Source: Nannocystis bainbridge
GTDB lineage: Bacteria > Myxococcota_A > Polyangia > Nannocystales > Nannocystaceae
Length of the DNA: 64,000 nt
Reading direction: 5' to 3'
Assembly: GCF_028368995.1 (NCBI RefSeq)
Contig: NZ_JAQNDL010000004.1
Location: 192,001 to 256,000, forward strand
Positions 6,324 through 34,794 of this stretch are shown piece by piece (position 1 is the first letter of the stretch; every line of letters begins with the position of its first letter). The notes below the pieces were generated by a model. The model was given only the letters and a program-made list of their open reading frames with translations. It did no database searches and had not been told where the DNA came from. Made by a program: the position numbers and the translations under genes.

Positions 6324-7076
6324 TCATTCGCCGGCGGGCTTGGGGCGCAGCAACGGGGCCAGGCGCTCGCCCACGCACGAGCTGCGCAGGCGCGGCAGGA
6401 ACAGGCCCGGGCCGCTGGTGCGCAGGAGGGTCTGCGCGGTGGCTTCGGCCGCGTCGGGCCGGCCGTCGGCGCACAGCGCCAGCACGCGCAGGACCTCGCG
6501 TTCGTCGGCGAGCTGGCCGTGGGCGAAGCGGAGGGCGTGCTCGTCGAGGCGGGTCAGCGCGGCGGCTGGGGCGTCGCGCTGCAGGGCGGCCTGGGCCGCC
6601 TCGAGCAGGCGTCGCTCGGCGGCGGGATCGGGGGCGTCCTCGGGGGGCGCCGCGGAGGTGCGGCGCGGGGTCGGTCGGGTCGGTTGCGGTTCGGGCGGGG
6701 GGCTGACCGCGAGCGCGGGCGGCGGGGTCGAGGGCGCGATCGGGGCCGGCTCGCGCGGGGCTTCGATCGGGGTCACGGGGGTCGCGAGGACGGCCGGCTC
6801 GGGGCGGGTGAGCCAGCGGCCGCCGACGACGACGGCGCCGATCACCGCGGCGGCCGCGATCGTCTTGAGCCCAGCGGCCACGGCGGCCTTGCCGACGAGG
6901 GCCTCGGTCGCGTCGGCGAGGGCGGACGGATCGGGCACTTCGACGCCGCCGTCGTCGGGCCCCGCGGGCGGCGGCGCTTGCAGGCGCTGCCACACGCGCG
7001 CGAGCGCGTCGGGGTCGGCCGGGGCGCGGCGGGCCTGGCGGACGAGCCGCTGGATGTCCTCTTGTTCCTGGCTCAT
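6324..7076 (-). CDS. anti-sigma factor (single-pass membrane protein)
   Basis: MSQEQEDIQRLVRQ... with one transmembrane helix (AVIGAVVVGGRW) and a Pro-rich periplasmic part. The start ATG overlaps the sigma-factor stop as ATGA, which suggests translational coupling. Confidence 0.6.
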   Translation of the reverse strand: MSQEQEDIQRLVRQARRAPADPDALARVWQRLQAPPPAGPDDGGVEVPDPSALADATEALVGKAAVAAGLKTIAAAAVIGAVVVGGRWLTRPEPAVLATPVTPIEAPREPAPIAPSTPPPALAVSPPPEPQPTRPTPRRTSAAPPEDAPDPAAERRLLEAAQAALQRDAPAAALTRLDEHALRFAHGQLADEREVLRVLALCADGRPDAAEATAQTLLRTSGPGLFLPRLRSSCVGERLAPLLRPKPAGE

Positions 7077-7636
7077 CGAACATCCCTCCCGAGCAGCCGG
7101 CGCCGCGCGTGGGCTTTGGCGAACGCCTTCTTGGCCTCGCGCAGCCGCGAATAGACGGTGTTGACATTGACCTCGAGGATGGCGGCGATCTGCGGCGCCG
7201 ACAGCTCCTCGACCTCGTGCAGCACGAACACCTCGCGCTTGGCCTCGTCGAGCTCGGCCAGCAAGGCGTCGAGCATGCGCAGGGCCTCGGCGTCGAGCAG
7301 CGCCTGGTCGGGCCCGCGCTCGCCGCTCGGCCACTCGACGGTCGCGGGCTCGAAGCTGTTGCGGCGGGCCCGGTCGCGGAACTTGCGGGCGATCCGCACG
7401 GCGATGGCGTACAGCCAGGTCCGGATCGCCGCCCGGTGCTCGAACTCCGGCAGGCGCCGCTGGACGACGATGAACAGCTCGTGCAGCGCGTCCTCGACGG
7501 CCGCCGGCTGGACGCCGAGGCGGCCCAGCGCGCGCCACAGCTCGCGCGCGTGGGCGCGGTAGAGCGCGGCGACGGCCTCGCGGTGCGGCGCGCCCGGGAC
7601 GAGCGGGGCGGCGGTCAGCGGGGGAGCGGCGGGCAT
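7073..7636 (-). CDS. ECF RNA polymerase sigma factor
   Basis: Sigma-70 region 2 (HELFIVVQRRLPEFE) and region 4 (REVFVLHEVEELSAPQIAAILEVNVNTVYSRLREAKKAF) are present. Confidence 0.9.
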   Translation of the reverse strand: MPAAPPLTAAPLVPGAPHREAVAALYRAHARELWRALGRLGVQPAAVEDALHELFIVVQRRLPEFEHRAAIRTWLYAIAVRIARKFRDRARRNSFEPATVEWPSGERGPDQALLDAEALRMLDALLAELDEAKREVFVLHEVEELSAPQIAAILEVNVNTVYSRLREAKKAFAKAHARRRLLGRDVR

Positions 7637-9228: not shown

Positions 9229-10128
9229 TCAGTCGCAGGCGCAGTCGCAGCCGGCGGGGCTGTCCTCGTCGGCCCAGCACGGCGAGTAGTCGAGGGGCTC
9301 GAACTGGCACGACACGTCGTCGAGGAGCTCGAGCTCGACGCCGGTCGGCACGCCCTCGCCCACGGGGCCGAAATACGGGGTCTTGCCGGCGTGGGCCGGA
9401 TCGCAGGAGGCGGGCGGCGAGGTGTCGAAGCAACCGCCGCTCTGCCGCAGGTGCACGGGGATGCAGCGACCGACCGGCGGCTCGGCGCTGCAGGCGGGTT
9501 CGGCGGCCACCTCGTGCGTCGATTCTACCCACAGGCAACCATTGAGGCCGGGGTCGCCCTGGAATTGATCGCAGCTGGCCTGGTCGGTGAGCGATTCGCA
9601 ATGGTCGGTGAGGGCGCCGCAGGACTGGGGGCCCAGGTTGATGGCATATCGATAGCAATCGAGCGCCAGGCCCTGGACTTCGCAGCTGCAGTTGCCCCAA
9701 TCGGCCGGGATGTTGAGGGGGTCGAAGCTGAAGACGACGGGGACGCCGTCAGGGTCGCAATGGATGGCCGGGGATTGGCTGCCGCCGGAGATGCTGGCGC
9801 AGAAGCCGAGGGCCTGGTCGCCCCAGTGGCAGCCGTCGACGTCGGCCTCGAGCGCGCCGCCGCCGACGAATTCGCAGCCGGCATCGACGCAGGTGGCCTC
9901 GTCGGTGTGCTGGGCGCACGGGTCGTTGCCCTCGGTGGTGGGCAGCTCGCCAGTGGTGCTGGTGGAGGGATCGCCGGAGGGATCGGCGGAGGAGCTGGAA
10001 GGATCGCCGGAGGAGCTGGAAGGGTCGCCGGCGCTGACGGTCAGCTCGCCGAGAGAGTGCTTTTCGCCGCAGGCCGGCGAGAAGACGAGGAACATCAGGC
10101 TCAGGGGATAATGGATAAGCGAACGCAA
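9229..10128 (-). CDS. Cys-rich secreted lipoprotein, hypothetical
   Basis: LMFLVFSPAC lipobox, followed by a Ser-rich linker and about 26 Cys residues. The 5-prime end of the gene is locally lower in GC. Confidence 0.65.
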   Translation of the reverse strand: MRSLIHYPLSLMFLVFSPACGEKHSLGELTVSAGDPSSSSGDPSSSSADPSGDPSTSTTGELPTTEGNDPCAQHTDEATCVDAGCEFVGGGALEADVDGCHWGDQALGFCASISGGSQSPAIHCDPDGVPVVFSFDPLNIPADWGNCSCEVQGLALDCYRYAINLGPQSCGALTDHCESLTDQASCDQFQGDPGLNGCLWVESTHEVAAEPACSAEPPVGRCIPVHLRQSGGCFDTSPPASCDPAHAGKTPYFGPVGEGVPTGVELELLDDVSCQFEPLDYSPCWADEDSPAGCDCACD

Positions 10129-10356
10129 GGTACACCTCGATGGTAGTCAGGCGTGGCGCGCGGCGGCGATTCGAGTCGCCGTCGGTCGTCACGGTCATGA
10201 AGTCCGACCGGCAGCGTCGATCCATCGAAATTTTTTCGCGCTCGGGGATCGCGGGACGCGACGATGCGCACCGCTCGCGGGAGCGGCCAGCGGGTTCGTT
10301 CCCGCGGTCGCTCCGGCGAAGGGTGCGCGTTGTCCGACGAGCGAGCGTGTGACCCG

Positions 10357-10701
10357 CTACTTGGCCGGGTCGGCGGCCTTGGCGTCGTGATGGCCCGGGT
10401 CGTCCGCGGAGGGCTTCGCGCCGGCCGCGACGCCGCCGGGCGGCTCGTAGCCGGGCGCGGGCGGGTGGGTGCCGGACGGATTGGCGGCGCCGCTGGAGGG
10501 CCCGGGGGTCGGGCTGTTCGCGGACTGGCCCGTGGGGTGCGGGTTGGTGCGGGTGTCGGCCGGGGCGGGGGCGCCGGCCGGTGCGGCGGCTCCGGCCGGA
10601 GTGGCGGCGCCGGCGGTGGGCGCGGGCTCCTTGGCGCGAGAGCCACAGGCGGCGAGGGCGAGCAAACAGGCGAGGCCGAGGGTGTGATGAAGGGTCTTCA
10701 T
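10357..10701 (-). CDS. small low-complexity lipoprotein
   Basis: MKTLHHTLGLACLLALAACGS lipobox, then an Ala/Pro/Gly-rich tail. This is the C-terminal part of ORF 10357..11610, whose remainder is Arg-rich artefact. Confidence 0.5.
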   Translation of the reverse strand: MKTLHHTLGLACLLALAACGSRAKEPAPTAGAATPAGAAAPAGAPAPADTRTNPHPTGQSANSPTPGPSSGAANPSGTHPPAPGYEPPGGVAAGAKPSADDPGHHDAKAADPAK

Positions 10702-10859
10702 GGTGAGAGCGATGGGTTCGTGGGTGAAAGGGAGGTGAGAGCGCGGCGGTCGGCGCCGCGTGGGAATGGTTCGGTGAGGTGCGGAGATTCGCGGTCCCCG
10801 CACTGTCATTTGGGGGTGAGCGACGCGCGAATGTCGGGACGCGGCAATTCGCGGACGGA

Positions 10860-11207
10860 TCAGGACGAAACCGGGGACTGTCGCTCGCTGGCGGCCTGGC
10901 TGGCGCCGCCGTGGCGGGCTTCGTCGGGATCGGTGGGGCTGGCGCGGCCGGGTTCGCTGTCCGGGCGGCCGCCCATCGAACCGTGGCGCAGGACCCGGGC
11001 CAGATGGAGTGTGGCCTGCTCGACGTGGCGGGCGTCCTGCTCGAAGATCTGGCGCAGGAGGTCGACGCATTCGGGCGAGTTGGCCCGCTGGGCGTCTTGA
11101 ATGTATTGCGCGTAGGCGCGGAGGGCCTCGGACTTGCGCTGGACGATGGTGATCCAGTCGTAGGCGAGGTCGCTGAGCGGCTCTGGATTGCGCAGGGCGT
11201 CGGTCAT
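10860..11207 (-). CDS. small conserved helical protein, paralog 1 (putative stress protein; family not recognised)
   Basis: MTDALRNPEPLSDLAYDWITIVQRKSEALRAYAQYIQDAQRANSPECVDLLRQIFEQDARHVEQATLHLARVLRHGSMGG. It is about 75% identical to the protein at 15456..16049. Confidence 0.7.
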   Translation of the reverse strand: MTDALRNPEPLSDLAYDWITIVQRKSEALRAYAQYIQDAQRANSPECVDLLRQIFEQDARHVEQATLHLARVLRHGSMGGRPDSEPGRASPTDPDEARHGGASQAASERQSPVSS

Positions 11208-11629
11208 GCTGAGATTCTCTCGACGCGAGGACTCTGATCGAAGCGGCAGGCGGGGCCACCCGGGAATTGACCCGGGGCCTGACCGGCGCGGCGCTCGCCC
11301 GGGCCGCACGCCTGGCCTCGCTGGCCCCTCGCCCGCCGCGGAGGAGGCGCACGAACGCCGGTTGCGTGGCGGGCGGGGCTTCGGTGGAGGGCCTCGACGA
11401 TGGGAGACTTTGCCATCGTGCCAGCGAGAGGTCGGCGCCGGCTCTCGTCGCATCGTCGCTGCCACGAGTGACGGGCCGGCGGGACCAGCGTGGCTCGGGG
11501 GGCGCGGCCGGCGACCCGGCGAAAGGCCGCGTCGGTCGGGGGTGGCGCGGGTGATTCAGGGTTTTTCCGGGGTGAAGGATTGGGCCATGTTTGTTATTGT
11601 CGCCGGCCAAGACTGCGTCGAGGATTGAT

Positions 11630-12295
11630 ATGAACGAGGTCGCGGCTCTTCAGGGGGACGTGAAGACTCAGCGCCCGCGGGTGCTGGTGGCCGAAGATCA
11701 CACGCTGGTCCGCGAGGGCCTCGTGCGCCTTTTGGCAGACGAAGTCGATATTGTGGGGGCGGTGCCCGACGGTCGGGCGCTGGTGACCGCGGCCCAACAG
11801 TGTCGACCCGACGTGGTGCTCGTCGACGTGACGATGCCGCTGCTCAACGGGTTCGACGCGGCGCGGCAGCTGCAGCGGCTGCACCCCATGGGGCGGGTCA
11901 TCTTCGTCACGGTGCACGCCGATCCGGACTACGTGCAGGCGGCGTTTCGCGCCGGGGCGCGGGGCTACGTGGTGAAGACCGCGGCCTCGGCCGAGCTGCT
12001 GCTGGCGATCCGAACGGTCCTGGCGGGCGGCACGTTCGTGTCGCCGGCGCTGACCCACGAGCCGTGGGTGGACGGGCCCGAAGATCGGTTCGGCGACGAG
12101 CTGTCGGCGCGTCAGCGCGAGGTCCTGCAGCTGGTCGCCGAGGGTCGGCCGGCTCGCGAGATCGGGGACATCCTCGGCATCTCGCGCAAGACGGTCGAGT
12201 TTCACAAGGCGCGGCTGATGCGGGCGCTCGGGCTGCGCACGGTCGCCGAGCTGACGCGCTATGCGGTCGAGCGCGGGCCGCTCTCGGGTCGTTGA
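11630..12295 (+). CDS. NarL/FixJ-family response regulator (REC plus LuxR-type HTH)
   Basis: Receiver (VLVAEDHTLVREGL...DVVLVDVTMP) and LuxR HTH (LSARQREVLQLVAEGRPAREIGDILGISRKTVEFHKARLMRALG). Confidence 0.85.
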   Translation: MNEVAALQGDVKTQRPRVLVAEDHTLVREGLVRLLADEVDIVGAVPDGRALVTAAQQCRPDVVLVDVTMPLLNGFDAARQLQRLHPMGRVIFVTVHADPDYVQAAFRAGARGYVVKTAASAELLLAIRTVLAGGTFVSPALTHEPWVDGPEDRFGDELSARQREVLQLVAEGRPAREIGDILGISRKTVEFHKARLMRALGLRTVAELTRYAVERGPLSGR

Positions 12296-12388
12296 GAGGC
12301 GGCCGCGCTCGTGGGGATCGGGGTCCTGCCGGCGCTTGCCCTTCCCGGTCGATCGGATCGCTCTCGGGGTCGTCCGACGACGAGCGGG

Positions 12389-14188
12389 TCAAGCAGCTAC
12401 AGGAGGAGCTGGCGGGGCCGAGGTGACCTCGTGGGCGGCTTCGCTGGTCCCCGCGGTCTCGAACAGGACCAGGAAATGGCGCCCCTCACCGGGCGCGGAC
12501 AGCGGGATGACGTGGAGGACGAACTCGTGGCCGGCGCCGTTGAACTCGACCCGCAGGCCCTCCTTGCGGACCGGCCTGTCGGACTTGCGGGCGCCGTAGA
12601 GCGCGGTCTGGAGCCCGTGGAGCAGGCCCTCGCGCGCCATCTTCAGCAGGTTCAGGCTCTGGGCCGCGTCGCCCGGGGCGGGCTCGAGGTAAAGGCCGGT
12701 CTTGCCGCGGAACTGGACGATCTGGAAGTTCTCGTCGACGATCACGCCTGGCGGCCCGTAGCGATCGAGGACCAGGCGGTTGGCCTCGTTCTGGAAAGAG
12801 TGGGGCGTGTGCATTTCGGCGGGCAGGCGCGGGGCTCGGTGAGACGAGCGGCTGGGGTTGTACTCCACGGGGAACGGGAAGTCGGAAGGAGTCTCGATCG
12901 GCCGCTTGACGAAGATCCGGTGCTTCTTGTCGATGACGGCGAACAGGTCGGCCTGGGCGCCGACGGTCTCGGCGCCGCCGAGCATGAGGAAGCCCGACGG
13001 CTTGAGCGCGTAGTGAAACACGGTCATCAGCTTGCGCTGCAGCACCGCGCCCATGTAGATGAGCACGTTGCGGCAGAGGATGAGGTCGAGCTTGGAGAAG
13101 GGCGGGTCGCGGGTGACGTCCTGGCGGGCGAACACGCATAGATCGCGCACGGCCTTGGCGATCCGGTACTTGCCGCCGTCGGTCTTGGTGAAGAACCGGC
13201 GCAGCCGCTCGGGCGACAGGTCGGCGGCGATGCTGTCGGCGTAGAGGCCGTTGCGCGCGTGCTCGATCGCCGTCTCGCTGACGTCGGTGGCGAAGATCTG
13301 GACCGGCACCGCGCTCGACTCCTCGCCGAGGCACTCGAGCAGGGCGATCGCCACCGAGTAGGCCTCCTCGCCGGTCGAGCAGCCGGGCAGCCACAGCCGG
13401 ATCGTCGGCGGCCTGTAGTGCGTGAAGTCGACGCCGCTGGTGTTGCGCAGCATCGTGAAGATCCGCAGCAGGTGCTCCTGATGGATGACGAGCTCGTCGC
13501 CCGGCCGACGCGCATACGCGGCGCGCACGTAGGGGTGACGGCCGATCCGCTGCAGCTCCTCGGCGATCCGCGGCGGGGTCAGGACGAGGTCGACGCTGCC
13601 GGTGGCGATCGCGGCCCGCGGCATGCCGTCGTAGCGGGCGGTCTCCGGGTCCTGGGCGATGGTGATGCCGCCGACGCCCTTGATCTCGCGCAGGCCCGTC
13701 GAGCCGTCGACGCCCGTGCCCGACAGGACCACCCCGACGGCGCAGGTCTCGAGCGCCTTGGCGAGGGAGCTCATGAGCGCGTCGATCGGGGTGTACTGGG
13801 TGCGGTCGGTGGGGCGCGGGGTCGGCACCAGGTGCAGGCCGAGCACGCTAAGCTGGATCCCGGGCGGCGCCAGGTAGACGTGGTCGGGCTGGAGCGGCAG
13901 CTCTTCGTTCACGACCACGGCGGGCATGGCGGTGTGCATGCGCAGGATCTCGGCCAGGCCGCTGTCGCGCCCGCTGGCCTGATGGACGACGTAGACGTAG
14001 GCGATGCCGAGGTCCGGCGGGAGCACGTCGAGGAGGTCGGTGAAGGCCTCCAGGCCGCCGGCGGACGCGCCGATGGCGACCACCAGCAGGCGGCCGGACG
14101 CGGGCGGGTGGGTCTCGGCGGGGGTGACTTCGTCGTTCTCGTCGACGGCCTCGACGGTCTCGGGAGGCGGCATGGGGAGGGTCGGCAT
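12389..14188 (-). CDS. CheB methylesterase / CheR methyltransferase / PAS fusion protein
   Basis: The N-terminal half has the CheB catalytic domain (GASAGGLEAF...). The middle has the CheR SAM-binding methyltransferase (LWLPGCSTGEEAYSVAIAL, ILCRNVLIYM). The C-terminus is a PAS-like segment. Confidence 0.85.
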   Translation of the reverse strand: MPTLPMPPPETVEAVDENDEVTPAETHPPASGRLLVVAIGASAGGLEAFTDLLDVLPPDLGIAYVYVVHQASGRDSGLAEILRMHTAMPAVVVNEELPLQPDHVYLAPPGIQLSVLGLHLVPTPRPTDRTQYTPIDALMSSLAKALETCAVGVVLSGTGVDGSTGLREIKGVGGITIAQDPETARYDGMPRAAIATGSVDLVLTPPRIAEELQRIGRHPYVRAAYARRPGDELVIHQEHLLRIFTMLRNTSGVDFTHYRPPTIRLWLPGCSTGEEAYSVAIALLECLGEESSAVPVQIFATDVSETAIEHARNGLYADSIAADLSPERLRRFFTKTDGGKYRIAKAVRDLCVFARQDVTRDPPFSKLDLILCRNVLIYMGAVLQRKLMTVFHYALKPSGFLMLGGAETVGAQADLFAVIDKKHRIFVKRPIETPSDFPFPVEYNPSRSSHRAPRLPAEMHTPHSFQNEANRLVLDRYGPPGVIVDENFQIVQFRGKTGLYLEPAPGDAAQSLNLLKMAREGLLHGLQTALYGARKSDRPVRKEGLRVEFNGAGHEFVLHVIPLSAPGEGRHFLVLFETAGTSEAAHEVTSAPPAPPVAA

Positions 14189-14230
14189 GGAGCGCTGGCG
14201 GCGTGAGCGGTGACGCGGCGAAAGTTCGCG

Positions 14231-15313
14231 TCACTTCTCGGCGGCGGCATCGGGCGGAGGCGCGGTCGGGGCCGGAGGCGTCAGCCGCGGCGAGTTCCGG
14301 TGCACGAGCGGCCGCAGGGTGTCGGCGTAATCCTCGATCTCGAGGGCGCTCTTCTCGTATTGCTGGGCCAGCCCGGCGTACCCGGCCTTGCCGCTGCGCT
14401 CGGCCTGCTGGCGGTAGAGGGCGGCGTTCTCTTCGAGGGCCCGCAGGGCGCCCCACAGCGCGCCCTCGAGCTTGGCGCTCTGCCCGGACAGCAGGGCCTC
14501 GGCGGTGAAGCCGTGGCCGACGTGGCAGCGGAAGCGCAGCAGCTTGTCGGCCCCGGGCGCCTCCCACAGCGCGCCGCCGCATTCAGGGCAGGTGTACGGC
14601 GAGCGGGTGCCGGCCGGCTCGCCCTCCTGCAACACGGTGCCGCGTTCGGCCTCGTCGTCGCTCGGCGCCGGGCCCAGGCCGAGCGGGTCGGCGACCCGCT
14701 CCTGCACCAGCCGGAGCAGGAGCTCGGGGATGGCGGCCGCGGGCAGGACGCCGTGGACCTCGACGTTCTGGATCGCGCTGAGCGGCATGCTGGGGATCGT
14801 GGCCTCGGCCGGATCCTGGGCGATCGCCAGGCCGCCGGCCTCGGTGATCCGCAGCAGGCCCTCGGTGCCGTCGTCGAGGCCGCCCGAGAGGACGACGCCG
14901 ATGACGCGCGCGCCGTAGGCCGCGGCGGCGCTGCGGAACAGCGGGTCGACCGCCGGGCGGAAGCCGTTCTCCTTGGGCCCGCGAGTGACTCGCACGTACG
15001 CGCGCTTGATGAGCAGGTGATGGTCGGGGCGGGCGACGTAGATCCGGCCGCGCTCGATGGCCTGGCGATCCTGGGCCAGGCCGGTCGGCAGCCGCGACAC
15101 CCGGCGCAGCAGGTCGGACAGCACGCCCGGGTTGTCGGGTGACATGTGCATCGCCACGAACACCGCGGCGGGGAAGTCGCGTGGCAGCCCGCGCACGATG
15201 TCGAAGAGCGCGGTGAGGCCCCCGGCGGAGGCTCCCATGACGATGATGTCCCGCGGCGCGGTGTTCGCTCTCGACAAGGTCCCGCCTTCTTCATTCCGCG
15301 GGGCTCCAGGCAA
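14231..15313 (-). CDS. CheB-type protein-glutamate methylesterase lacking a receiver domain, with a C-terminal zinc-ribbon-like extension
   Basis: IVMGASAGGLTALFDIV... forms the CheB catalytic domain, followed by CPECGGALWE...FRCHVGHGF. No N-terminal REC domain is present. Confidence 0.8.
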   Translation of the reverse strand: MPGAPRNEEGGTLSRANTAPRDIIVMGASAGGLTALFDIVRGLPRDFPAAVFVAMHMSPDNPGVLSDLLRRVSRLPTGLAQDRQAIERGRIYVARPDHHLLIKRAYVRVTRGPKENGFRPAVDPLFRSAAAAYGARVIGVVLSGGLDDGTEGLLRITEAGGLAIAQDPAEATIPSMPLSAIQNVEVHGVLPAAAIPELLLRLVQERVADPLGLGPAPSDDEAERGTVLQEGEPAGTRSPYTCPECGGALWEAPGADKLLRFRCHVGHGFTAEALLSGQSAKLEGALWGALRALEENAALYRQQAERSGKAGYAGLAQQYEKSALEIEDYADTLRPLVHRNSPRLTPPAPTAPPPDAAAEK

Positions 15314-18228: not shown

Positions 18229-18663
18229 ATGCCGACCAGAGACGACAACCGCAACGAGAACAAGGGCGGGAACAAAGGCCAGCGGGGCGGGGCCGGCGGC
18301 GGGGGCGGCGGCGGGGGCGGCGGACGCGGCTTCGCCGGGATGGACGAAGAGAAGCAACGCGAGATCGCCAGCAAGGGCGGCCACGCAGCCCACGAGAAGG
18401 GCACGGCCCACGAGTTTACGTCGGAGGAGGCGCGGGAGGCGGGCCGCAAGGGCGGCGAGGCGGTCAGCCAGGACCGCGAGCACATGGCCGAGATCGGCGC
18501 CAAGGGCGGCCACGCGTCGCACGGCGGGGGCCGCCGCAGCGAGGGCGGCCGCGAGGAGAGCCGCAGCTCCGATGAACGCCGGAGCGAGCGCGGCGGTCAG
18601 GGCCAGGGCGGCGGCCAGGGCCAGGGCGGCGGCGGGCAGGGCGGCGGCCATCGCCAGCGCTGA
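18229..18663 (+). CDS. KGG-repeat general stress protein
   Basis: Repeated ...GAKGGHASHGGG / SKGGHAAHEKG / GRKGGEAV motifs match the stress-induced KGG repeat family, and the termini are Gly-rich. Confidence 0.85.
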   Translation: MPTRDDNRNENKGGNKGQRGGAGGGGGGGGGGRGFAGMDEEKQREIASKGGHAAHEKGTAHEFTSEEAREAGRKGGEAVSQDREHMAEIGAKGGHASHGGGRRSEGGREESRSSDERRSERGGQGQGGGQGQGGGGQGGGHRQR

Positions 18664-27816: not shown

Positions 27817-29289
27817 TCAGGGCGAGCGGATCAGGCGGGCGGCGGTGTCGAGCAGGCGGGCGAGCTTGACCGGCTTGGGGATCAGGATCGTGCCGGGCGG
27901 GACGCGCGTCGGGTCGGAGGTCGAGACGATGACGGGGATCCGCGCCAGCTCGGGCACGGCCTGCATGGCGTGATAGACCTGCGCGCCGTCGAGGATCGGC
28001 ATCACCATGTCGAGGATGACGAGGTCGGGCTTGGCCCGGCCGTGCAGCAGCAGGTCGAGCGCCGCGCGCCCGTCGGCCGCGGTGCCGGCGTCGTAACCCT
28101 CGCCGGCGAAGGCCTCGCGCAGGCTCTCGCGGGTGGCCTCGTCGTCGTCGACGATCAGCACGCTGCGCGGGCGCGGCTCGGGCTCGGTGCGCGGGTGGTC
28201 CGACGAGACGCGCGGCAGGCGGAGCGTGAACACGGTGTCGGTCTCTTCGCTCGAGGCGACCGCGACGGTGCCGCCGTGGGCCTGGGCGATCTGCTGGGCG
28301 ATGTAGAGGCCGAGGCCGAGGCCGCGGGAGTTGGCGCGCGAGGGGCCGTGCTCGCGCCCGCGGAACGGGTCGAACAGGACCGGCAGCAGCTCGGCCGGGA
28401 TGAGGCCGCGGTTGCGGATCTCGACCGCGATCTGGTGGCCGTCGTCGAACACGCGGATGGCGATCGGGCCGTCGGCGCGGCCGTGCTGGATCGCGTTGCC
28501 GATCAGGTTGGACAGCGCCTGGACCAGCCGGTCGGGGTCGCCGGCGGTGTTGGCGTCGCCGTAGGCCTCGACCCGGACGTCGCGCTGCGAGTGGGTGGTG
28601 CGCAGCTCGTCGACGGCGCGCTGGACCAGCTCGCACACGTCGACCGGCTTGCGCCCGCGCGCGAACCCGAGGCCGCCGGCCAGGCGGGCCCGCGTCAGGT
28701 CGAGCAGCTGCTCGATCATCTCGTTCATGCGGTGGCCCGAGACGAACATGCGCCGCAAGATGCCGAGCTGGTCGTCGTCGGTGACCAGCTGCTCGAGGAT
28801 CTCGGTGCCGGTCTGGATCGCCGACAGCGGGGTCCGCAGGTCGTGGCCGAGGATGCCGACGAACATCTCGTTGAGGCGCAGCGCGTGGGTGCAGTCGCGC
28901 CGCTGCTTCGACAGCTCGAAGAACACGTCGGCCTTGCTCCGCAGCACCCGCGGGTCGATCGGCTTGTGCAGGAAATCGACGGCGCCCGACTCGTAGCCCT
29001 GGAACACCCGCTCGGCGTCGCGCCCGCCGGCGGTGACGAAGATGATCGGGACGTGCTTGGTGCGCTCGGTGCCCCGCATCAGCTCGGCCAGCTCGAAGCC
29101 GTCCATGCCCGGCATCTGCACGTCGAGGAACGCCAGCGCGACGTCGTGCACGAGCAGCAGCTCGAGCGCCTCGAAGCCGCTGCGCGCGGTGAGGATCTCG
29201 AGCCCGTCGCGCCGCAGCAGCGCCTCGAGCGCGACCAGGTTCTGCGCGGTGTCGTCGACGAGGAGGAATTTGATGGGCTCGAGGTTCAT
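27817..29289 (-). CDS. hybrid sensor histidine kinase (REC-HisKA-HATPase-REC), cytoplasmic
   Basis: MNLEPIKFLLVDD...DVQMPGMDG forms the first REC. The H-box is LGHDLRTPL, the N/G boxes are present, and the C-terminal REC reads SVLIVDDDEA...DMVMPILDG. The start overlaps the cheB stop as ATGA. Confidence 0.9.
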   Translation of the reverse strand: MNLEPIKFLLVDDTAQNLVALEALLRRDGLEILTARSGFEALELLLVHDVALAFLDVQMPGMDGFELAELMRGTERTKHVPIIFVTAGGRDAERVFQGYESGAVDFLHKPIDPRVLRSKADVFFELSKQRRDCTHALRLNEMFVGILGHDLRTPLSAIQTGTEILEQLVTDDDQLGILRRMFVSGHRMNEMIEQLLDLTRARLAGGLGFARGRKPVDVCELVQRAVDELRTTHSQRDVRVEAYGDANTAGDPDRLVQALSNLIGNAIQHGRADGPIAIRVFDDGHQIAVEIRNRGLIPAELLPVLFDPFRGREHGPSRANSRGLGLGLYIAQQIAQAHGGTVAVASSEETDTVFTLRLPRVSSDHPRTEPEPRPRSVLIVDDDEATRESLREAFAGEGYDAGTAADGRAALDLLLHGRAKPDLVILDMVMPILDGAQVYHAMQAVPELARIPVIVSTSDPTRVPPGTILIPKPVKLARLLDTAARLIRSP

Positions 29290-29882
29290 GATGCCTCCAC
29301 GGGGCGCGGGGTCGCGGCGAGCCGGGCGAGCAGCTTGCCGAGGTCGGCCGCGGGCGCGCTGTGAGCGACGGCGGTCCGCTGCAGGGCGGCGGCCGGCATG
29401 GTGCGAACCGCGGCGGTGGCCGGCGATTCGACGAAGGTGAGGCCGCCGGCGCGGGCGATGCACTCGAGGCCGCGGGCGCCGTCCTCGTTGGCGCCGCTGA
29501 GCAGGACGCCGGCGAGGTGCGGCCCGTAGGCGGCGGCGGCCGACTCGAACAGGACGTCGATCGAGGGCCGCGAGAACAGCACCGGCAGGTCGACCGAGAG
29601 GGCGAAGCTACCGCGGCGCTCGACGAGCAGGTGGTAGTTCGGAGGGGCGACGTAGATCGTGCCGGGCATGATGGGCTCTTTGTCGTCGGGCTCGCACACG
29701 GGCAGCCGGGCCTGGGCGCGGAACACCTCGACGAGGTGGCTGGGTTGAGTCGGCGGCAGGTGCAGGAGCACGGCCAGCGGCAGCGGATAACCGGTCGGCA
29801 GCGCCGGCAAGATCGCGCGCAGGGCGTCGATCGCCCCGGACGAGCCGCCGATCACGATCATATGAACCTCGCGGGCCGCCAT
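29286..29882 (-). CDS. cheB: CheB-type methylesterase, catalytic domain only
   Basis: MIVIGGSSGAIDAL... forms the CheB catalytic fold. The protein is 198 aa and has no REC domain. Confidence 0.85.
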   Translation of the reverse strand: MAAREVHMIVIGGSSGAIDALRAILPALPTGYPLPLAVLLHLPPTQPSHLVEVFRAQARLPVCEPDDKEPIMPGTIYVAPPNYHLLVERRGSFALSVDLPVLFSRPSIDVLFESAAAAYGPHLAGVLLSGANEDGARGLECIARAGGLTFVESPATAAVRTMPAAALQRTAVAHSAPAADLGKLLARLAATPRPVEAS

Positions 29883-29885
29883 GGC

Positions 29886-30703
<818 letters not shown>

Positions 30704-30707
<4 letters not shown>

Positions 30708-33700
30708 TTGGGCATCCACACGCGCGCCAGCGACAGCAGCTTGTCGACGTCGAGCGGCTTGGCGATGTAGTCGTTGGCGCCGGCGGCGAGGCAACTGGCG
30801 CGGTCGTCGGCCATGGCCTTGGCGGTGAGGGCGATGATCGGGATCTTGGCGGTCGCAGGGTCGGCGCGGATGGCCCGCGTGGCGGTGAGGCCGTCCATCT
30901 CCGGCATCATCAGGTCCATGAGGATCAGGTCGACGCCGGGCTTGCTGCGCAGGTGGGCCAGCGCCTCCTTGCCGTTGCGGGCGATCTCGACCTTGGCGCC
31001 GCGCGGCTCGAGCACGCTGGTCAGCGCGAACACGTTGCGCACGTCGTCCTCGACCACGAGCACGCGCCGACCCTCGAACACGGCGTCGCGGTGGCGAGCG
31101 TCCCGCAACATGCGCTGGCGCTCGGGCGGGAGGCTGGTCTCGACCTGGTGGAGGAACAGGGTGACCTCGTCGAGCAGCCGCTCGGGCGAGCGCGCGCCCT
31201 TGATGATGATCGACTGCGAGAACCGCCCGAGCTCCTGCTCCTCGGCGCGGTTGATGGCCCGCCCGGTGTAGACGATGACGGGCGGGAACCCGTACTGCTG
31301 GCCCTGGGCCATCTCCTGCAGCAGCTCGAAGCCCGACCTGTCGGGCAGGCTGAGGTCGAGGACCATGCAGTCGAAGGTGGTGGTCCGCAGGGCGGCGAGG
31401 GCGTCGGCGGCGGTGCCGACCGGCACGGTCTCGACGTCGTCGCCGGCCAGCAGCTTGCAGGTGCTCTCGCGGTGCACGAGGTCGTCCTCGACCACGAGCA
31501 CGCGCCGCAGCGACTGGGTGGCCTTCGACTCGAGCCGGCGCAAGGCGTCGACGAGCTGCTCGCGCACGACCGGCTTGATGGCGTAGGCGACGGCGCCCAT
31601 CTCGAGCGCGGTGCGGGTGTGATCGCTGGCGCTGATGACGTGGACGGGGATGTGACGGGTGTTCGGGTCGTGCTTGAGCGCGTCGAGCACGGTGAGGCCG
31701 GAGCGGTCGGGCAGCTGGACGTCGAGGACGATGGCGCTCGGCCGATGCTGCCGCGCGAGCTCGAGGCCGGCCTCGGCGGTGTCGGCGAGCAAGGCCTGGA
31801 ACTCGAGCTCGCGCGCGAGGCCGGCGAGCACGGTGGCGAAGGCCGGGTCGTCCTCGATGACGAGGATCGAGCGCGTGTCGGTGGCAGGGGTAGGCGCGGG
31901 CGGCTTGGCGGCGGGCGGGCGACGCAGCGGCGGCGGTGCGGGCGGGGCGGCGGGCGGGAGCGGGAGCGCGGGCCCGGTGGTCGGCGCGAGCGCGGGCGAG
32001 GTGACCTGGCCGGGCGCGGTGAGCTGCGCGGGGATGGTCAAGGTGAAGGTGCTGCCGCGACCGACGGCGCTGGCGACGGTGAGCTCACCGCCGAGCAGGC
32101 GCGCCAGGTCGCGGGAGATCGAGAGGCCGAGGCCGGTGCCGCCGTACTTGCGGTTGGTGGTGCCGTCGGCCTGACGGAACGCCTCGAAGATCATCTCCTG
32201 CTGATCGGCGGGGATGCCGATGCCGGTGTCGGTGACCGCGAAGGCGACGTTGCCGGCCCCGGCGGCGCGCACGGTCAAGCTGACGCCGCCCTGCTCGGTG
32301 AACTTGAGCGCGTTCGACAGCAGGTTGCGCAGGATCTGGGCCAGCCGCGTCGAGTCGGTGTGCAGCGCGGGCGGGGCGTCGCGCTGCACTTCGATGTCGA
32401 GCGCGAGCCGGCGGTCGCGCGCGATCGGGCGGAAGGTCGTCGCCAGCTGATCGGTGAGGCGCGCCACGGTGACGGCCTCGGGCCGCACGTCGAGCATGCC
32501 GGCCTCGATCTTCGAGAGATCGAGGATGTCGTTGATGAGGGTGAGCAGGTCGTTGCCGGCGGAGTAGATCGTCTCGGCGAACTTGATCTGCTCGGCGTCG
32601 AGGTTGCCCTGGCGGTTGTCGGCCAGCAGCCGCGCGAGGATCAGCGAGCTGTTGAGCGGGGTGCGCAGCTCGTGCGACATGTTGGCGAGGAACTCGGACT
32701 TGAAGGCCGAGGTCCGCCGCAGCTGGACCTGCGCCTGGGTGAGGCTGTCGCGCTCGCTCTGCAGGGCCTGGGTCTGCTCCTCGAGGTGAGCGTTGATCTG
32801 CTCGAGCTCGGCCTGTTGATTGCCGAGGCGCGCGCGCGACTCCTCGAGCGCGCGGGTCTGCTGCTCGAGCTCCTCGTTCTGGACCCGCAGCTCCTCTTGC
32901 TGGGTCTGCAGCTCCTCGGCCTGGCGCTGGGTCTCCTGCAGCAGGGCGGCGAGCCGCTCCTTGTGCTCGGAGCTGCGCACCGCGAGCGCGACGGTCTCGC
33001 CGATCCGCGCCAGCAGGTCGAGGACCTGCGGCCGGGGCGGGCGCAGAAAGCCGATCTCGAGCACGGCGACGGAGACCCGGTCGATGCGCGCCGGGGTGAC
33101 GTAGACGTGCGAAGGGGCCCGCTCGCTGGTGCCGGAGCGGATCGGCAGGTCGCTGCCGTCGCTCAACTCGACGATGCGGCCGTCGTCGGCGGCGCGGCCG
33201 ACGACGCCCTCGCCGGCGGCGAAGGTCTCGGGCCCGCCGATGCGGGTGTCGAGGCCGAGCGCGGCGCGCCGGGCCCAGCCGGCGCCGTCGCGGACAAAGA
33301 AGGCGCCGACGTCGGCGCCGACGTGGGTGGCCAGCGCGGTGAGGCAGTCGCGGCCGACCTGCGCGGTGCTCTTCTCGCCCTGCATGGCCTCGGCGATCCG
33401 CGTGTGACCCTCGCGGACCCACGCCTCGCCCTCGAGGGTGACGCGGGCCTGCTGCTCGGCGTCGAGGGCCGAGCCGAAGGTGCTGGCGATCGCCGCCAAT
33501 TGCCGGCGCGAGAGGAAGGCGAGCAGCACGGCGACGCCGGCCAGCAGCAGGACGAAGGCGTTGCGGGCGATCGCGGTCGAGCGCTCCGAGGCGACCGCGC
33601 GCGCGGTCAGCAGGTCCCGCTCGACGTCGAGGGCGGCGGTCATGGCCTCACGGACGCCGTCCATGCGCGACTTGCGATCGCGCAAGCCCTCGGAGCTGCG

Positions 33701-34117
33701 GGCGTACTCGAGGTCGCTGCTGACCTGCGCGGCGGTGCTGGCGGTCAGCCACGACTGGTAGCGCGCGTGGGCCTGCTCGAACTGGGCCTGCTGCGTGGGG
33801 TCGTCGGCGACCAGTGCCTGCAGCCGCTCGAACTTGTCGCCCGGGTTGGCGCGCTCGAACGGGGCGAGGTACTGGCGGTCGGCGGTCAGCAGGTAGCCGC
33901 GCAAGGCGGTCTCCTGGTCGACGACCTCGAGCATCGTCGCGTTGGCGAGCGAGAGGACCTCGTTGCTGTGGTTGACCCACGCGGCGTCGTCCGCCATCAG
34001 GAGGATCTGCCGGCCGAGCACCACGCCGAGGAACAAGAGGAGGGCGATCGGCGTGGCGATCGCCACGGTGAGCCGCTTGGTGAGCGACCTGCGCTGCGCT
34101 TCCCTGATCTGCGTCAC
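30704..34117 (-). CDS. CHASE3-GAF hybrid sensor histidine kinase with three C-terminal receiver domains
   Basis: A transmembrane helix is followed by a periplasmic CHASE3 domain ([20 protein letters not shown]), a second transmembrane helix and a GAF-like region. Next comes a long E/Q-rich coiled coil, then HisKA ([11 protein letters not shown]) and HATPase ([13 protein letters not shown]). Three REC domains follow ([26 protein letters not shown]...DLMMPEMDG). The GTG start is at 34117. Confidence 0.9.
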
Positions 34118-34593: not shown

Positions 34594-34794
34594 ATGAACC
34601 GCGATCAGATCCAAGGAAAGTGGGAGCAGCTCAAGGGCAAGGCCAAGCAGATGTGGGGCGACCTGACGGACGACGATTTCCTGAAGGCCGAGGGGAACGC
34701 CGACAAGCTGTGCGGGATCATCCAGGAGCGCTCGGGTGAGCGCCGCGAAGACATCGAGCGCAAGCTCGACTACAAGAACTACGGCAATCAGTAG
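34594..34794 (+). CDS. csbD: CsbD-family general stress protein, copy 2
   Basis: [58 protein letters not shown]. It is about 85% identical to copy 1. Confidence 0.9.

Follow-up and report, generated by a model that had tools for sequence, protein, structure and literature searches.

What do a CheR-type methyltransferase and a CheB-type methylesterase do in an operon in which they are accompanied by two histidine kinases rather than by a chemoreceptor? This question is posed by four minus-strand open reading frames (ORFs) at 27817..34117 of a 64,000-nt stretch from Nannocystis bainbridge (contig NZ_JAQNDL010000004.1, positions 192,001 to 256,000; in the following, the window), which encode, in this order, the kinase HK1, CheR, CheB and the kinase HK2. 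The locus is the N. bainbridge copy of a widespread RsbK/CfcA-type module, the architecture of which is already known. An earlier note on this DNA had left open whether such an arrangement was characterized; it is, in cfcABCDE of Pseudomonas putida, in bmsA of Pseudomonas alkylphenolica and in rsbK-rsbM of Bacillus cereus. As to function, we consider it probable that the module belongs to the RsbK/CfcA family of methylatable hybrid kinases and that its CheR and CheB act on a helix of HK1. The tuning of a kinase by methylation of coil glutamates is established in a relative and is strongly supported here by the comparative data, from which we infer the methylation in N. bainbridge.

HK1 (30704..34117; 1137 aa; MDC0722812.1) is a hybrid histidine kinase of the CfcA/RsbK type. 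It is followed by CheR (29886..30707; 273 aa, GTG start; MDC0722811.1), an S-adenosylmethionine (SAM)-dependent protein-glutamate O-methyltransferase of a kinase-associated CheR subfamily, by CheB (29286..29882; 198 aa; MDC0722810.1), a methylesterase catalytic domain alone with no receiver, and by HK2 (27817..29289; 490 aa; MDC0722809.1), a REC-HisKA-HATPase_c-REC hybrid kinase; these genes and all operon features below lie on the minus strand. The stop codon of HK1 and the GTG with which CheR starts overlap in the sequence GTGA (30704..30707), a 3-nt gap separates the CheR stop from the CheB start (29882..29886), and the CheB stop overlaps the ATG of HK2 in the sequence ATGA (29286..29289). 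An exact-sequence look-up identified the products as consecutive N. bainbridge proteins at NCBI, and the ORFs with their junctions, as read in the earlier note, agree exactly with the NCBI gene calls. That the four genes form one coupled unit, as had been proposed, is borne out by these junctions and by the conserved synteny described below, and the pairing of CheR and CheB with kinases instead of a chemoreceptor was likewise read correctly. Neither a methyl-accepting chemotaxis protein (MCP) nor CheA or CheW is encoded in the operon, and the same was found for the 64-kb window by Pfam searches of about 40 window ORFs and a regular expression for the chemoreceptor tip motif. A scan for promoters and terminators gave no signal above chance, and in NCBIfam no specific family attained its cut-off. 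The public name of HK1 is merely “response regulator”, a label that hides its nature as a sensor kinase.

Pfam searches of the four proteins recovered the architectures that had been predicted from the sequence. In HK1, the layout is TM1, CHASE3, TM2, GAF, signalling coil, HisKA/HATPase_c and three REC domains. The periplasmic sensor anticipated by the earlier note is a CHASE3 domain (aa 45–173; 33599..33985; PF05227, E=3.3e-24), which lies between two predicted transmembrane (TM) helices read from the sequence (aa 16–35 and 187–202). The GAF_2 domain (aa 250–380; 32978..33370) is a marginal match: Pfam did not report it when the full-length protein was scanned, and it passed, with 29.3 bits against a cut-off of 28.6, in a scan of aa 203–395 alone. 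GAF_2 was found also in HK1 homologues, and the AlphaFold2 (AF2) model of HK1 places a GAF-like alpha/beta fold in this region, ahead of a long helix. HAMP gave no Pfam match in HK1. The kinase core (32024..32701) consists of HisKA (aa 473–540, with the phospho-acceptor His482) and HATPase_c (aa 588–698), and is followed by three REC domains (aa 750–849, 872–974 and 1018–1121; 30755..31870) with the acceptors Asp799, Asp921 and Asp1068 all present. The acidic pocket, acceptor Asp and conserved Lys are kept in all five receivers of the operon, three in HK1 and two in HK2. The suggestion that these five form a phosphorelay is a conjecture; there is no histidine phosphotransfer (HPt) domain, and the receiver of RsbK is inhibitory. 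At its C-terminus (30704..30760), HK1 ends in RVWMPK, and almost all CheR-linked kinases, whatever their phylum, have a conserved tail of the form S-L-x-R-V-W-[ML]-[PY]-[KR], 0–6 residues before the stop. This tail may be a Trp-containing tether for CheR and CheB like the chemoreceptor NWETF, or just the last helix of the receiver.

Both modifying enzymes appear equipped for catalysis. CheR matches Pfam CheR_N and CheR, and its closest solved relative is CheR of Bacillus subtilis (5FTW). The motifs AGCATGEE and CRNVLIYF of its SAM-binding domain, as well as the basic N-domain helix ASLRRRL, are invariant in four orthologues from three phyla. CheB carries CheB_methylest (aa 9–184) as its sole domain, as the earlier note had recognized, and its Ser14, His41 and Asp134 align with the triad Ser164/His190/Asp286 of Salmonella CheB, so that the triad is intact. 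Because CheB has no receiver, it cannot be feedback-activated, and if its action depends on state at all, this dependence must arise in the substrate helix or in the receivers. HK2, the counterpart of P. putida CfcD, has neither an EE-heptad coil nor any comparable acidic coil.

Which part of the operon could then be the methyl-acceptor? In the AF2 model, a single unbroken helix is predicted for aa 363–500 (32618..33031; model residues 134–271), which joins the last GAF helix, by way of the signalling coil, to helix 1 of the dimerization and histidine phosphotransfer (DHp) domain with His482, with a predicted local distance difference test (pLDDT) score above 90 over most of the coil. The Glu-rich coil between GAF and HisKA to which the earlier note had drawn attention was quoted exactly and lies at about 32723..32965. 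Within it, the core candidate methyl-accepting motif spans 21 residues (aa 400–420; 32858..32920) and contains three heptad-spaced Glu pairs, E401/402, E408/409 and E415/416. Among the HK1 homologues, which are 32–56% identical over sensor and coil, 96 were aligned on the H-box; the approximately 100 residues from GAF to the phospho-His are gap-free and close to invariant in them.

To place these features in a wider context, we scanned with a CheR alignment, one genome per species, and obtained at least 589 relatives; the locus analyses use the best 80 of these at least 589, with calls made by hidden Markov models built from sequences gathered in this analysis and applied to the loci. The 80 loci belong to Planctomycetota, Verrucomicrobiota, Acidobacteriota, alpha-, beta- and gamma-proteobacteria, Myxococcota, Bdellovibrionota and Desulfobacterota, and further to Bacteroidota, Gemmatimonadota, Deinococcus, Chloroflexota and Sericytochromatia. 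A sensor-coil-kinase-REC gene directly precedes CheR in 67 of the 70 loci with enough upstream DNA, a short CheB gene directly follows CheR in 71 of 80, and the gene after CheB encodes a receiver in 76 and a kinase core in 63 of 80. In these 71 loci, less than 800 nt (typically 10–70 nt) separate the CheR match from the beginning of the CheB match, which is about 500–560 nt long; this leaves no room for a CheB receiver. The neighbourhoods of three HK1 homologues, from a Polyangiaceae-like metagenome-assembled genome (MAG), Pyxidicoccus and Pirellulales, likewise contain the kinase, CheR, receiver-less CheB and REC-kinase genes. The gene-neighbourhood search proposed in the earlier note thus found the kinase/CheR/CheB/kinase quartet in the same order across about a dozen phyla, and its recurrence in 80 loci of many phyla means that the arrangement is not due to chance. 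Of the three loci that lack the upstream coil kinase, two (L004 and L056) keep CheR-CheB followed by the REC-kinase. The third, L058 from “Bacterium UASB14”, has CheR-CheB and then a 1287-aa REC-PASx-GAF-PAS_10-kinase protein without the EE-heptad motif (9872..15281 of that locus).

The coil motif turned out to be specific for kinases that are linked to CheR. In 71 such kinases, recovered independently through CheR, we found the recurring unit EEL-Q-x-Q-Q-E-E-L-[RK]-x-x-N-E-E-L-E-E-[QK]-x-x-x-L, with Leu at every seventh residue and a Glu pair in the two positions preceding it. When the pattern is relaxed to Q-x-E-E-L-x3-N-E-E-L, it is matched by 68 of the 71 linkers and by not one of the approximately 9,500 remaining six-frame ORFs in these loci, which total 1.75 million residues. 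Similarly, EEL-x4-EEL occurs in 71 of 75 CheR-adjacent kinases vs none of the 93 other kinase cores of these loci, all HK2-type genes included. The distance from the first Glu of a pair to the phospho-His is 46, 53, 60, 67, 74, 81 or 88 residues, depending on the lineage, and is always 4 modulo 7 (200 motif occurrences in three samples). Because the EE heptads are near-invariant, confined to CheR-linked kinases and always in one register relative to the phospho-His, the coil is, judging by sequence, the best candidate for the methyl-acceptor.

Searching with the coil alone, we retrieved 540 representatives of clusters formed at 50% identity, of which 95 matched at E<=1e-10. Among 41 long coil-matched proteins, 40 contain GAF_2 and HisKA, while CHASE3 was found in 18, HAMP in 8 and dCache in 2. 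With GAF_2 and HisKA near-universal and the other domains patchy, the constant unit is GAF-coil-kinase plus CheR, and the extracytoplasmic sensor varies (CHASE3, CHASE3+HAMP, poly-HAMP or dCache).

Support for a connection between the enzymes and the coil comes also from a different protein family. In CheB/CheR fusion proteins, a coil of six to eight x-N-E-E-L-x-x heptads is present in 115 of the 120 listed relatives of the fusion that the window encodes at 12389..14188 (see below), so that, as in the HK1 system, a NEEL heptad coil accompanies a methylesterase and a methyltransferase, here within the same polypeptide. Since both enzyme domains are fused to such a coil, a Rosetta-stone argument points to a functional link between the enzymes and the EE-Leu heptads. 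The fusions differ from the operon in that the coil protein itself carries the enzymes, PAS takes the place of CHASE3/GAF and no kinase domain was matched in the relatives listed; moreover, the fusion CheR belongs to a different subfamily, with 62 bits to the operon CheR.

The closest experimental precedent is RsbK of B. cereus, a CHASE3-HAMP-GAF-S-helix-kinase-REC protein whose signalling helix is methylated by the adjacently encoded CheR-type RsbM (PMC4574943, PMC12848376). RsbK-like kinases were reported from 10 phyla; methylation favours the binding of the kinase's own receiver, and methylation and the C-terminal receiver together hold the pathway off (PMC4574943). The HK1 operon shares with RsbK/RsbM the CHASE3 and GAF domains, the signalling helix, the kinase core, a C-terminal receiver and the adjoining CheR-type gene. 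It differs in that RsbK has HAMP and one receiver, whereas HK1 has three receivers and no detectable HAMP; in that a receiver-less CheB follows CheR here; and in its output, which in B. cereus is the REC-PP2C protein RsbY in the sigB cluster, whereas the N. bainbridge operon closes with a second hybrid kinase. Homologues of PP2C, RsbV/W and sigB were not found in the 64-kb window; the ECF-type sigma factor encoded at 7073..7636 has no relation to such a cluster. The methylated sites of RsbK are reportedly two Glu seven residues apart, about 59 and about 66 residues before His505. In the register observed here, this would correspond to the second Glu of the pairs; these positions are not used as evidence.

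Among Gram-negative relatives, CfcA has, like HK1, a CHASE-type sensor, GAF, a kinase core and three receivers (bioRxiv 10.1101/2024.11.25.625174). It activates the diguanylate cyclase CfcR in a response stimulated by salt (PMC4951495; bioRxiv 10.1101/2024.11.25.625174), and CfcB/CfcC of the cfcABCDE cluster are a CheR/CheB pair without a role in chemotaxis, while the receiver of CfcD resembles that of CfcR (PMC4951495). The bmsA orthologue of P. alkylphenolica lies in the same four-gene context (PMC8175716); in cfcABCD and bmsA as in our operon, kinase, CheR, CheB and REC-kinase follow each other on one strand. The Pseudomonas homologues P0017, P0019, P0023 and P0031 are 32–36% identical to HK1 over sensor and coil, covering at least 94% of the query, the Pseudomonas CheR proteins are 50–53% identical to the operon CheR, and the Pseudomonas loci L034–L043 contain the same module and the same coil motif. 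N. bainbridge belongs, however, to a different phylum, HK2 has an extra C-terminal receiver, and the regulator CfcR (REC-GGDEF-EAL) and the salt stimulus are known for the cfc system. No REC-GGDEF-EAL regulator is encoded in the 64-kb window; in P. putida, CfcR is unlinked.

With the chemoreceptors Tar and Tsr of Escherichia coli, HK1 shares Glu pairs seven residues apart on the exposed face of a long coiled coil, and its partner enzymes are of the same families with intact catalytic residues; in both systems methylation is expected to alter helix packing and hence kinase control. The differences are that the operon has no chemoreceptor signalling domain, CheA or CheW, that the kinase resides in the same polypeptide as the coil, and that CheB lacks the receiver through which feedback would act.

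From these parallels, a mechanism can be proposed. HK1 would sense at the membrane, with CHASE3 in the periplasm and GAF in the cytoplasm, and its signal would pass along one helix of about 138 residues straight into the helix of His482. The pairs E401/402, E408/409 and E415/416 are at predicted solvent-exposed positions, where CheR, using SAM, could form methyl esters on one or more of the glutamates and the receiver-less CheB could hydrolyse them. The level of methylation would then change the packing or rotation of the helix and thereby the balance between kinase activity and receiver docking. Phosphoryl groups would be passed on to the receivers of HK1 itself, to that at the N-terminus of HK2 and, probably, to a response regulator that is unlinked; the corresponding regulator of relatives is the diguanylate cyclase CfcR (PMC4951495) or the PP2C phosphatase RsbY (PMC4574943).

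How well does this proposal stand against other explanations? The enzymes might be ordinary adaptation enzymes for chemoreceptors encoded elsewhere, for instance in a Che-like pathway of gliding motility, and their position would then reflect co-regulation only. Both have the intact catalytic residues typical of chemotaxis, and myxobacteria possess many Che-like clusters (PMC3945109). We regard this as very improbable, though: this CheR subfamily adjoins the coil-bearing kinase across phyla, as detailed above; a tip-motif search of 83 loci yielded three receptor-like ORFs, none of which adjoins the module, and none was found in the window; the P. putida orthologues are without a role in chemotaxis (PMC4951495); and a receiver-less CheB is the norm of the family, so there is no CheA feedback. 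Several observations weigh against methylation of the coil. Chemoreceptor methylation sites follow the consensus [ASTG][ASTG]-x-x-[EQ][EQ]-x-x-[ASTG][ASTG]. The earlier note had likened the coil to chemoreceptor methyl-accepting helices and proposed a comparison with their consensus; this consensus matched 0 of the 71 linkers, HK1 included, and the family has a motif of its own instead. The coil Glu positions never alternate with Gln in these linkers, and the strong conservation of the helix could reflect signal transmission alone. Our literature search returned no paper showing methylation of a Gram-negative CfcA-type kinase, and the comparison of HK1 with RsbK is one of described layouts. 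Finally, the CfcA-dependent phenotype persisted in mutants of the other cfc genes (an unpublished result, cited in PMC4951495), which means that the enzymes modulate signalling rather than enable it.

The missing consensus and the lack of Gln alternation fit a coil that is a mere signalling helix between GAF and kinase, of the kind that is common between sensor and kinase domains, in which case CheR and CheB would modify a receiver, HK2 or an unlinked protein, or would be non-catalytic partners. In this direction point also the absence of a reported phenotype for cfc enzyme mutants (PMC4951495) and the conserved RVW tail, by which another part of HK1 proves to be strongly constrained as well. 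Nevertheless, we judge this explanation unlikely, as none of the 93 other kinases in these loci has the motif, a like NEEL coil is fused to CheB/CheR domains in another family, HK2 offers no comparable acidic coil, and the sole experimental case puts the methylation on the signalling helix (PMC4574943). A less distant alternative, which we hold to be possible without favouring it, accepts the methylation of the coil and dispenses with an adaptation loop: CheR would be a constitutive “off” lock, CheB would set a steady state or deamidate, and regulation would come from receiver phosphorylation. B. cereus, where no esterase is paired with RsbM and the RsbK receiver (Asp827) controls release (PMC4574943), gives a precedent for it. 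It agrees also with the lack of a receiver, and hence of feedback activation, in CheB, and with 9 of the 80 loci which have no CheB between CheR and the REC-kinase gene and keep kinase and CheR, so that reversibility is not universal. The retention of CheB directly after CheR in the other 71 argues, in contrast, that reversal matters. Furthermore, as known from adaptation in Tar and Tsr, the conformation of the substrate alone can make both CheR and CheB state-dependent. We retain methylation of the HK1 helix by CheR, with its reversal by CheB, as the probable function of the module.

Going further, we tentatively suggest that the coil represents a distinct methyl-accepting code that is independent of chemoreceptors (heptad x-N/Q-E-E-L in one register to the phospho-His), serves reversible adaptation, is assisted by an R-V-W-[ML]-[PY]-[KR] tether and is common to the CheB/CheR fusions; this bolder version may well not hold in full. 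To a specialist, the methylation of such a kinase would come as no surprise, since RsbK of B. cereus has already established the principle. What is added here is a motif common to the family, its constant register relative to the phospho-His, the connection with the fusion coils and the conserved RVW tail that might tether the enzymes. If true, an ordinary two-component kinase would acquire true reversible adaptation from a CheR dedicated to it and a CheB without receiver, and glutamate methylation, usually taught as a speciality of chemotaxis, would be a general means of setting the gain of such kinases, at work in hundreds of species. The three Glu pairs of the motif are concrete candidate residues, and the fixed heptad register to the phospho-His provides the rule for finding their equivalents. 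For Pseudomonas, the analysis suggests a role for the unexplained cfcB and cfcC.

Several variants of the module were observed among the loci. CheR-linked kinases of Deinococcus and Gemmatimonadota carry about 6 to 15 HAMP-like repeats before GAF-coil-kinase in place of CHASE3 (L076, 4810..9996; L071, 2808..9938; L075; L077). The two Chryseobacterium loci (L073, 5999..9616; L082) encode CHASE3-HAMP-GAF-coil-kinase, the layout described for B. cereus RsbK, and have, ahead of CheR, a further receiver, either as a gene or as a domain. When the HAMP-containing Bacteroidota variant was used as seed for a homologue search, all proteins retrieved were of the Bacteroidota type. The loci without CheB (L026, L033, L038, L039, L052, L060, L070, L076 and L079) resemble B. 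cereus. The NCBIfam model of HrmK, a cyanobacterial hormogonium hybrid kinase, aligns to HK1 aa 396–855, starting inside the coil, with 376 bits against a cut-off of 725; HrmK-type kinases may have a related coil. The label PF28019 (HmpF) on some homologues was rejected, as it reflects a weak coiled-coil match and nothing more.

Upstream of HK1, a CsbD-like general-stress protein is encoded divergently at a distance of 477 nt (34594..34794, plus strand), and a KGG stress-repeat protein lies 9 kb away (18229..18663, plus strand). A link of the module to general stress via CsbD was dropped: among 83 loci, a divergent CsbD gene was found only in L060 and a more distant one in L036.

At a distance of 13 kb from the operon, the window contains a second, unrelated CheB/CheR-type locus (12389..15313). 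It includes a CheB-CheR fusion (12389..14188, minus strand), the ORF of which comprises 599 aa and is identical to an N. bainbridge protein of 594 aa; its C-terminus is PAS_10-like. This fusion has neither CheR_N nor the long NEEL coil, and other Nannocystis versions comprise about 1010 aa; it may be a truncated or rearranged copy. A receiver-less CheB methylesterase protein of 360 aa with a zinc-ribbon-like C-terminus (CPECGG...CHVGH) adjoins it (14231..15313, minus strand), and a NarL/FixJ-type response regulator (REC + GerE; 11591..12295, plus strand), divergent from the fusion gene, may belong to the same locus.

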